This document shows, one piece after another, positions 2,725 to 3,235 of a stretch of DNA of 22,197 nucleotides. The translations under genes and the position numbers were made by a program. The first letter of the stretch is position 1; every line of letters begins with the position of its first letter. A model generated the notes under the pieces. It was not told where the DNA came from. It saw nothing but the letters and a program-made list of their open reading frames with translations, and did not search any database. This DNA comes from a virus: the UHGV virus genome UHGV-0363730. One strand, given 5' to 3'.

Positions 2725-2919
2725 ATGACATTCATCAACCAGTTAATGCTGTACTTCTGTACGGTGGTCTGTGTGTTGTATCTGCTTTCGGGTGGATACA
2801 GGGCAGTACGCGACTTCTGGCGCAGACAGATTGACAAAAGGGCCGCTGAGAAAATCAGCGCCACTCAGTCAGCCGGAGCAAAAACAGAAGCCCCACTCAT
2901 TCCGGAACAACCTTCTTAA
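2725..2919 (+). CDS. Hypothetical small membrane protein (64 aa), one predicted N-terminal transmembrane helix
   Basis: ATG ORF; hydrophobic segment LMLYFCTVVCVLYLL followed by a charged tail; weak RBS. Could be non-coding. Confidence 0.35.
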   Translation: MTFINQLMLYFCTVVCVLYLLSGGYRAVRDFWRRQIDKRAAEKISATQSAGAKTEAPLIPEQPS

Positions 2920-2944
2920 TAACCCCTTTCAACGAGAAAATCTC

Positions 2945-3235
2945 ATGACAGATATAAAACAACTGGTCACTGCTGAGGCAGTGAAGGAAGTCATTCGCTC
3001 TGAAGAAGTCAGAAGCGTCCTGAAACAAAAACTCCGCCAGAATCTGGAAGAGCGTCTTGATGCAGAAGTGGATTCAATTCTGGATGAATTGCTTGGTGCA
3101 CAGCCGGAACCATCTCCGGAACTGCTTCCGGAACCACAGGCGGAAGATGTCACCACGGAAAATGGTGATATTCAGCCGGAGTCACCGGTGACGGATATGA
3201 CAGACACACAACCCGAACCGGGCACAATGCTGTAA
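2945..3235 (+). CDS. Hypothetical acidic protein (96 aa) with helical N-terminus and Pro/Glu-rich disordered C-terminus
   Basis: ATG at 2945 (MTDIKQLVTAEAVKEV...) within the longer 2771..3235 frame; C-terminal PEPSPELLPEPQAEDV...TQPEPG; followed directly by a strong terminator at 3247-3277. The upstream 58 codons of the frame look non-coding. Confidence 0.45.
   Translation: MTDIKQLVTAEAVKEVIRSEEVRSVLKQKLRQNLEERLDAEVDSILDELLGAQPEPSPELLPEPQAEDVTTENGDIQPESPVTDMTDTQPEPGTML

Follow-up and report, generated by a model that had tools for sequence, protein, structure and literature searches.

What do two small genes do that sit between the esterase gene nanS-p and the holin gene of a lambdoid prophage, and do they protect the phage against host defence? 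This question is raised by the window analysed here, a stretch of 22,197 nt from the virus genome UHGV-0363730, in which the gene pair occupies positions 2725-3235. The window region, part of the late operon of an Escherichia coli lambdoid prophage, matches strain JNEC-KY173 at 100% and phage PhiR12_3 at 99.9% identity. An earlier note on this DNA had described a 64-aa open reading frame (ORF1) with one transmembrane helix, followed by a 96-aa frame (ORF2) with a helical N-terminus and an acidic Pro/Glu-rich tail, and had suggested, as speculation, an anti-restriction or anti-defence role for the acidic protein. Both frames are present with the features described, and they encode members of the families DUF1378 and DUF826. 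The reading we favour, at a probability of roughly 40%, is that the pair is a late inner-membrane lysis accessory. It is favoured because the genes are late, because the acidic tail is variable and dispensable, and because DUF1378, the membrane protein that is the constant member of the pair, is found within lysis cassettes in other phages.

ORF1 matched Pfam PF07125 over the complete model (positions 1-59 of 59; 122.6 bits, E-value 7e-36), and residues 1-57 of ORF2 matched PF05696 (87.2 bits, E-value 8e-25). At a gathering cut-off of 25 bits for each family both proteins are members, the tail of ORF2 lying outside the conserved core. Selection was analysed in 58 distinct versions of the ORF1-ORF2 block as the ratio of non-synonymous to synonymous polymorphism (pN/pS) per frame. 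The ratio was 0.26 for ORF1, and the other frames of the block reached 1.3-2.2 compared with 0.17-0.26 in ORF1 and the N-terminal domain of ORF2; variable sites were biased to the third codon position, and the ATG starts of both frames were invariant in 58 of 58 variants. Protein-level homologues with 38-63% identity have the same architecture in other phage types. Since the Pfam scores lie far above the cut-offs and purifying selection is frame-specific, ORF1 and ORF2 are, judged from their sequences, genuine genes, each subject to purifying selection in its annotated frame; the conservation of the frames in related prophages, on which the earlier proposal hinged, was thus borne out.

DUF1378 is predicted to be a tiny bitopic inner-membrane protein. 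ORF1 has a single hydrophobic stretch at residues 3-23, followed by the basic stretch YRAVRDFWRRQ, and the AlphaFold model consists of one helix (residues 2-48) with a loose C-terminus. By the positive-inside rule the predicted topology is N-out/C-in, with 2-3 residues in the periplasm and a short basic helix in the cytoplasm; the net charge of the cytoplasmic tail is +3. Residues L9, F11, V15, L18, L20, G23, G24, Y25 and R29 were invariant across genera, and the end of the helix carries the junction motif GGY(K/R)xxR. Because specific residues of the transmembrane helix and the junction, and not just hydrophobicity, are conserved across all these genera, the protein is more likely to make a specific contact, helix to helix or at the junction, than to serve as a generic anchor.

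DUF826 is predicted to be a cytoplasmic protein built from a near-invariant helical domain of about 50 residues, a variable acidic and Pro-rich linker and a conserved Met/Leu tip. In the AlphaFold model of ORF2, helices at residues 10-17 and 20-49 were confident (predicted local distance difference test, pLDDT, above 90) and the tail was disordered (pLDDT below 50), in line with the disorder that the earlier note had expected. The net charge of ORF2 is approximately -15.5, and its final 44 residues contain 11 Asp/Glu, 9 Pro and no Lys or Arg. Across the family the tail varies from 4 to 75 aa in length, while its acidic, Pro-rich, Lys/Arg-free composition is kept, and the C-terminus fits the pattern (T/M/A)(M/L/T)(M/L) in 42 of 47 distinct proteins, as in GTML, VMML, EMMM or ATLL. 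Relatives at 44-63% identity retain the three-part plan, apart from two variants in which the tail is missing. An exhaustive HMMER search with the N-terminal domain over 1.84 billion representatives gave only 28 matches at E-values of 0.001 or below, and the DUF826 family is therefore small; two of the matches (P0198 and P0202) are long multi-stretch proteins. A DUF826 scan of one genome per species returned none. Neither member of the pair matched NCBIfam or PADLOC, the latter holding models of defence systems only. Against the PDB, the profile search produced one insignificant match (E-value 0.47) and the fold search none, the one-helix model being uninformative for a fold search.

The start of DUF826 required correction. 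Both PGAP and the record of phage 933W (L0106) give the protein as 132-148 aa from an upstream TTG or GTG codon (TTG 2831 in PGAP), overlapping DUF1378 in another frame; database versions as a whole span 132-154 aa. This upstream extension (2831-2944, plus strand) had a pN/pS of 0.85, compared with 0.17 in the N-terminal domain, and is not under selection at the protein level; because of this value we take ATG 2945 to be the true start. The long version of 134-154 aa (933W L0106, PGAP) and the 'fusion' in PHROG 8301 were accordingly rejected as products of over-extension or frameshift.

The pair is common. The block was present in 1025 of 5426 complete E. coli genomes (approximately 19%), with a median of 2 copies and a maximum of 7. 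Among phage records, 307 carried DUF826, 309 DUF1378 and 351 nanS-p, the pair being found mostly in Shiga toxin (Stx)-converting phages. The breakdowns by organism of pair and nanS-p agreed (124/124/124 for Stx2a), except for Stx1a with many esterase-only records. Wherever the flanks reached far enough (80 IMG/VR loci, 933W, Sakai), the order was esterase, DUF1378, DUF826, holin, and this order was kept although the esterase varies down to 46-64% identity and the type of endolysin changes. More divergent relatives of the pair (44-63% identity) likewise lie upstream of a phage-21-type holin. A link of the pair to one type of endolysin was considered and dropped: the pair occurs with R21-type and with only about 33%-identical lysozymes, and DUF1378 with signal-anchor-release (SAR), GH19-like and soluble lysozymes. 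At three IMG/VR loci (L129, L135 and L144) the catalytic SASA domain of the esterase is deleted and the pair is kept. A second DUF6645-like fragment follows the DUF826 N-terminal domain directly and out of frame at these loci, which look like scars of recombination between the 3' end of the esterase gene and the DUF826 tail region. Three further loci (L121-123) have esterase and DUF1378 but lack DUF826.

Outside the lambdoid E. coli loci, DUF1378 was found as the last gene of the lysis cassette, directly after Rz/Rz1, at 23 of 80 diverse loci, which comprise three cassette types and have no esterase. One locus of each type was read directly (L106, L108 and L183), and the remaining loci were assigned by tblastn offsets; in all three representatives the ATG of DUF1378 overlaps the stop codon of Rz. 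The Stenotrophomonas phage BUCT709 type (19 loci) consists of pinholin, SAR lysozyme, Rz/Rz1 and DUF1378 (Pfam E-value 6e-17), the Rosenbergiella prophage type (2 loci) of two holin-like ORFs, a GH19-like endolysin, Rz/Rz1 and DUF1378, and the type of L183 and L185 of holin, soluble lysozyme, lambda-type Rz/Rz1 and DUF1378. The BUCT709 record (L106, OM816835) also contains an unannotated 71-aa ORF for a phage-21-type pinholin at 2721-2936, 5' of the lysozyme gene; the whole lysis cassette of this phage resembles the E. coli phage-21 type, and its R21-type lysozyme is 74% identical. In two further loci (L176 and L180), grouped with the Cedecea-type phages and without an esterase, a tail-less DUF826 N-terminal domain precedes DUF1378, so that the order is reversed.

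How might such a pair contribute to lysis? From their position, ORF1 and ORF2 presumably share a transcript with nanS-p and the lysis genes that starts at the late promoter under Q antitermination. DUF1378 would be the membrane anchor and DUF826 its soluble anionic partner in the E. coli lineage; probably pairing physically, the two would jointly assist the lysis programme from the cytoplasmic side of the inner membrane. An effect on lysis would then consist in tuning the timing or the efficiency of the pinholin/SAR-endolysin step or of the spanin step. The pair may work like the releasin gp25 of phage Mu, which is membrane-tethered, anionic and cytoplasmic, with no kinship to it. In Mu gp25 (Pfam DUF2730), an N-out/C-in protein, about 4 residues lie in the periplasm and the cytoplasmic domain is anionic; the gene follows those of the spanins. 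The protein is required for release of the SAR endolysin, and members of its family are also found together with endolysins that are not of the SAR type (Chamblee et al. 2022, PMC9239132). A bolder version of the lysis reading, which we consider doubtful but worth stating, would make DUF1378 and DUF826 a releasin-like regulator in two pieces, with DUF1378 as membrane anchor and DUF826 as a detachable anionic arm that docks through its Met/Leu tip. This regulator would set the timing or completeness of pinholin/SAR-endolysin/spanin lysis in Stx phages and hence influence the release of toxin and esterase; DUF1378 by itself would be a widespread but so far overlooked fourth or fifth element of lysis cassettes in proteobacterial phages.

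Several points weigh against a role in lysis. Lysis of the phage-21 type requires no such factor, and in the window the pair is located upstream of the holin gene and not after the spanins. Prophages E2348/69 PP2 and Sakai Sp12 have the esterase and the same type of holin without the pair, and K-12 Qin has this holin with neither pair nor esterase. In E. coli Mu-like prophages, esterase, DUF1378, DUF826 and terminator are found between gin and com/mom, far from the lysis genes, and Cedecea-type phages carry DUF1378 between tail fibre and Dam (about 9 loci, no esterase); both positions are cargo-like. The parallel with gp25 has its own limits: gp25 is a single 99-aa chain with its own anionic domain, whereas the tail of DUF1378 is net positive and the acidity resides on the separate DUF826. 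Comparison of gp25 and gp24 with DUF1378 and DUF826 revealed no sequence or profile similarity, no match to Pfam DUF2730 and an hhalign probability of 0.2%. Finally, the open-access PMC and bioRxiv literature searched names DUF826 and DUF1378 only in passing.

The genomic contexts also bear on other explanations. That the pair serves NanS-p, by tethering, chaperoning or inhibiting this signal-less enzyme or by helping its release, and that esterase, DUF1378, DUF826 and terminator form a portable module, is in our view rather unlikely. In its favour, the esterase or its deleted remnant lies directly upstream in every E. coli locus examined with enough flank, the phage-record counts of pair and nanS-p agree by organism group, and the L121-123 loci couple the esterase to DUF1378 alone. 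In the Mu-like prophages the trio forms a block with its own terminator and no lysis genes nearby; the esterase there has no DUF1737 domain, and its DUF826 is only 44% identical to that of the window, which suggests long co-retention. (Between this trio and com/mom lies a 66-aa ORF with no family match, at 5321-5521 in L095 and 11653-11853 in L105.) Against it, DUF1378 has no esterase beside it in the 23 lysis-cassette and about 9 tail-fibre/Dam loci, and the same holds for the DUF826 N-terminal domain plus DUF1378 in L176 and L180, while the esterase lacks the pair in approximately 44 phage records, E2348/69 PP2 and PP5 and Sakai Sp4 and Sp12. The pair is moreover kept beside the SASA-deleted esterases. 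A search with the nanS-p protein for other genera was uninformative, the best 120 matches all being named Escherichia, Shigella or Enterobacteriaceae.

Unlikely, too, is that the pair is moron cargo with no role in lysis which, expressed in the lysogen or late, alters the envelope or excludes superinfecting phages. Several of its positions are classic for cargo (after the late promoter beside other cargo, the right end of Mu, tail fibre beside Dam/acetyltransferase, the junction of lysis and packaging genes), a terminator closes the unit, and prophages that are otherwise alike differ in whether they have the pair; yet a crude scan detected no promoter-like site upstream on the plus strand, no PADLOC model matched, and the overlap of start codon and Rz stop in representatives of three cassette types argues for co-expression with the lysis genes. 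We regard as very unlikely the proposal of the earlier note that DUF826 is a nucleic-acid mimic or a protein-binding inhibitor of restriction or another defence. Known anti-restriction proteins (Ocr, ArdA, lambda Ral) act at DNA entry, but the DUF826 gene, judged by its position between nanS-p and S and downstream of Q, is a late-operon gene. DUF826 is indeed small, phage-encoded and strongly acidic (-15.5), it has no homologue of known structure, and its Met/Leu tip, carried on a flexible linker, resembles a docking motif. Its acidic part, however, is disordered, hypervariable and missing in some relatives, the conserved part being the helical domain; DUF826 is always coupled to a membrane protein found in lysis cassettes elsewhere, and the neighbouring cargo in this prophage is itself a restriction-modification system. 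Together with the lack of PADLOC and PDB matches this leaves the anti-defence role without support, which is not the same as a refutation. The least credible explanation is that the ORFs are untranslated and the region is conserved for its RNAs, a minus-strand small RNA (sRNA) and terminators. Intergenic DNA is as conserved as the ORFs, and related prophages are known to encode sRNAs between esterase and holin, but third-position bias and low pN/pS (0.17-0.26) only in the annotated frames, invariant ATGs in 58 of 58 variants and protein homologues at 38-63% identity speak for translation.

The pair had further been likened to a self-contained insert bracketed by hairpins. The hairpins are real, both folding better than 200 of 200 shuffled sequences, and the pair is a unit that is absent from the similar loci E2348/69 PP2 and Sakai Sp12. 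The hairpins are nevertheless not the boundaries of an insert, because the upstream one is an opposite-strand terminator beside the esterase stop and E2348/69, although without the pair, retains a terminator in front of the holin. The upstream hairpin (2586-2632) had z-scores of -4.4 on the minus and -5.2 on the plus strand; its minus-strand stem plus U7 (2626-2591) starts 7 nt past the stop codon of the esterase. On the plus strand A7 precedes it and no T-run follows, and we therefore read it as a terminator for the minus strand only. The minus-strand stem with its run of 6-8 U was found in 25 of 25 distinct variants, a few of which have different stems or loops, and the stem is almost invariant among close relatives. 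A small plus-strand ORF across this hairpin (Sakai H0118 type) was discarded, as its length varies (24, 14 and 4 codons in three variants, read off the alignment by eye).

The minus-strand terminator may end an sRNA. The motif TTGACA, which on the minus strand precedes the U-run by about 110 nt, could be the -35 box; with a transcription start site about 30 nt further on, the RNA would be approximately 85 nt long. The spacing, compared by eye, is like that upstream of PasA. The motif was not called by a consensus promoter scan, and its bases could instead belong to the DUF1378 leader. In location between esterase and holin, in orientation against the late operon and in having a stem and U-run, the candidate RNA is like the Hfq-dependent sRNAs PasA and PasC of enteropathogenic E. 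coli and EcOnc51 and EcOnc52 of enterohaemorrhagic E. coli (EHEC). All four end in a GCCAGC-type stem and U-run, and PasC/EcOnc52 do so right at the esterase stop, like the hairpin of the window (PMC8550237, PMC4104026, bioRxiv 10.64898/2026.05.13.724894). The Pas coordinates were taken from Table S6 of PMC8550237. Unlike the candidate, Pas-type loci have no DUF pair, and the BLAST match to PasA/PasC covers only 16 nt, within the terminator. The Pas sequence had no match in 85 DUF-type loci. A covariance model of the window RNA family (R1) scored 88 bits for 933W and 10-15 bits (E-values 0.7-9) for the PasA/PasC loci. Identity with PasA/PasC was hence rejected, as BLAST and the covariance model gave no support for the RNA bodies, and the hairpin RNA may at most be a positional analogue of PasC/EcOnc52. 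The esterase-holin spacer of E2348/69 PP2 and Sakai Sp12, approximately 447 nt, shows no trace of the pair and carries PasA/EcOnc51 on the opposite strand. In the Sakai table from Hfq cross-linking and analysis of cDNA (CRAC), there was no peak at the only DUF-type locus that could be placed (Sp5), which does not prove absence. Rfam searches of 2300-3600 at gathering and permissive thresholds gave nothing except Esr41 on the minus-strand hairpin; at 16.6 bits against a cut-off of 102 this far sub-threshold match was taken as terminator resemblance, and an Esr41 identity was not accepted.

The downstream hairpin (3238-3285, plus strand) had a folding energy of -21.9 kcal/mol and a z-score of -4.3, and several stem variants still pair. 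An equivalent hairpin precedes the holin gene in E2348/69, and K-12 Qin has no obvious equivalent. We infer that this terminator is read through only by Q-modified RNA polymerase. In the simplest reading it would serve as an insulator that bars non-antiterminated transcription from the lysis genes; a crude scan predicted no sigma-70-like promoter on the plus strand between esterase and holin. The features of the window are compiled in Table 1.

Table 1. Features of the gene pair, its flanking hairpins and the neighbouring late genes in the window
Feature	Position	Strand	Details
DUF1378 protein (ORF1, 64 aa)	2725-2919	+	Pfam PF07125; PHROG 494
DUF826 protein (ORF2, 96 aa)	2945-3235	+	Pfam PF05696; PHROG 311
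DUF826 N-terminal helical domain, residues 1-51	2945-3097	+	35 invariant columns; pN/pS 0.17
DUF826 tail: variable, acidic, Pro-rich, Lys/Arg-free linker with Met/Leu tip (GTML in the window)	3098-3235	+	pN/pS 0.49
Intrinsic terminator for the minus strand	2591-2626	-	8-bp stem CCGCCAGU/GCUGGCGG (2626-2619/2605-2598), U7 at 2597-2591
Candidate sRNA of about 85 nt ending at the upstream terminator	2591-2675	-	inferred; conserved stretch UUCUCCAU
Conserved TTGACA, possible -35 box of the minus-strand RNA	2701-2706	-	kept in nearly all variants; -10 weak
Strong intrinsic terminator between DUF826 and holin	3245-3281	+	GC-rich stem-loop, 12 pairs, T6
STnc100-type sRNA	187-403	+	Rfam 150.6 bits; STnc100/PasD-type; 5' of nanS-p
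nanS-p-type sialate O-acetylesterase	611-2584	+	Pfam DUF1737 + SASA + DUF6645
Phage-21-type pinholin S, dual-start motif MYQMEK	3312-3527	+	Pfam PF04971, E-value 5e-35
R21-type lysozyme with N-terminal SAR-like segment MSRKLHYGLSVAVLALIATGASAP	3532-4065	+	Pfam PF00959; sequence
Rz i-spanin with embedded Rz1 lipoprotein ORF (4584-4769)	4364-4831	+	ORF list; 'lysis protein' in identical prophage

Several neighbouring features were observed in addition. Upstream of nanS-p, a minus-strand feature at 411-481 with a convergent terminator (432 to 411) faces the STnc100/PasD-type sRNA; this is the 'convergent sRNA pair' site, which in EHEC prophages is occupied by the anti-sRNAs AgvB and AsxR. A 57-aa ORF with a hydrophobic segment (4189-4362, plus strand) lies between R and Rz. 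The lipoprotein-like ORF 3' of Rz (5088-5468, plus strand) is at the position where lambda has bor, and in a different prophage (NZ_CP082824, L086) the equivalent position holds a gene labelled 'TonB family protein'. Upstream of these genes, the parent genome has the antiterminator Q and restriction-modification cargo. This cargo (L005, 6277-9416) consists of an HsdM-like methyltransferase and a specificity subunit ('BcgI-like' in the PhiR12_3 record) and occupies the site where Stx phages carry stx.

Altogether, the pair consists of very common and catalogued, but functionally uncharacterised genes. A paper from 2023 mentions DUF826 and DUF1378 genes between nanS-p and S with no further comment, and elsewhere 'DUF1378' is an error for DUF1738; for the locus tags L0106, ECs1208-1210 and Z1467, the matches listed contained only unrelated literature. 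New here are the membership of DUF1378 in lysis cassettes of other genera, the releasin-like architecture, the conserved C-terminal tip and corrected start of DUF826 and the assignment of the upstream hairpin to the opposite strand. As a result, the locus drops out of the plausible anti-defence candidates, the DUF826 start is corrected, and the upstream hairpin is re-read as an opposite-strand terminator at the position of an sRNA. The pair is carried by about a fifth of complete E. coli genomes, often in several copies, and by most sequenced Stx phages. Shiga toxin and NanS-p exit the cell by phage lysis, and a conserved lysis accessory, if the favoured reading is true, would bear on toxin release. 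In phages of several genera, the standard scheme of holin, endolysin and spanin would then gain DUF1378 as a further component. Should the pair serve the esterase instead, its role would account for the handling of a signal-less enzyme.

Three known systems invite comparison. DUF826 is like T7 Ocr and ArdA in being small, strongly acidic and phage- or plasmid-borne. Those proteins, however, are folded mimics expressed at DNA entry, whereas the acidic region of DUF826 is disordered and variable, its gene is late by position, and it has no sequence or fold match. The RI and RIII proteins of T4 form a two-protein antiholin pair that acts on the holin in lysis inhibition. With a small membrane-associated and a small helical cytoplasmic protein, the DUF1378-DUF826 pair would resemble them in composition; RI, unlike DUF1378, has a periplasmic domain through which it acts, the holin of T4 belongs to another class, and no search gave a homology signal. 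The resemblance to Mu gp25 is architectural only, and it extends to several features. Both gp25 and DUF1378 are small late proteins that scarcely reach into the periplasm, with an N-terminal transmembrane helix of N-out/C-in topology (predicted for DUF1378), and a Gly-Gly plus basic junction marks the cytoplasmic end of this helix in both. At the 23 of 80 diverse loci, though not in the window, DUF1378 also shares the gp25 position after the spanins. The anionic cytoplasmic part of gp25 would have its counterpart in DUF826, the tail of DUF1378 and DUF826 together carrying a net charge of approximately -12.

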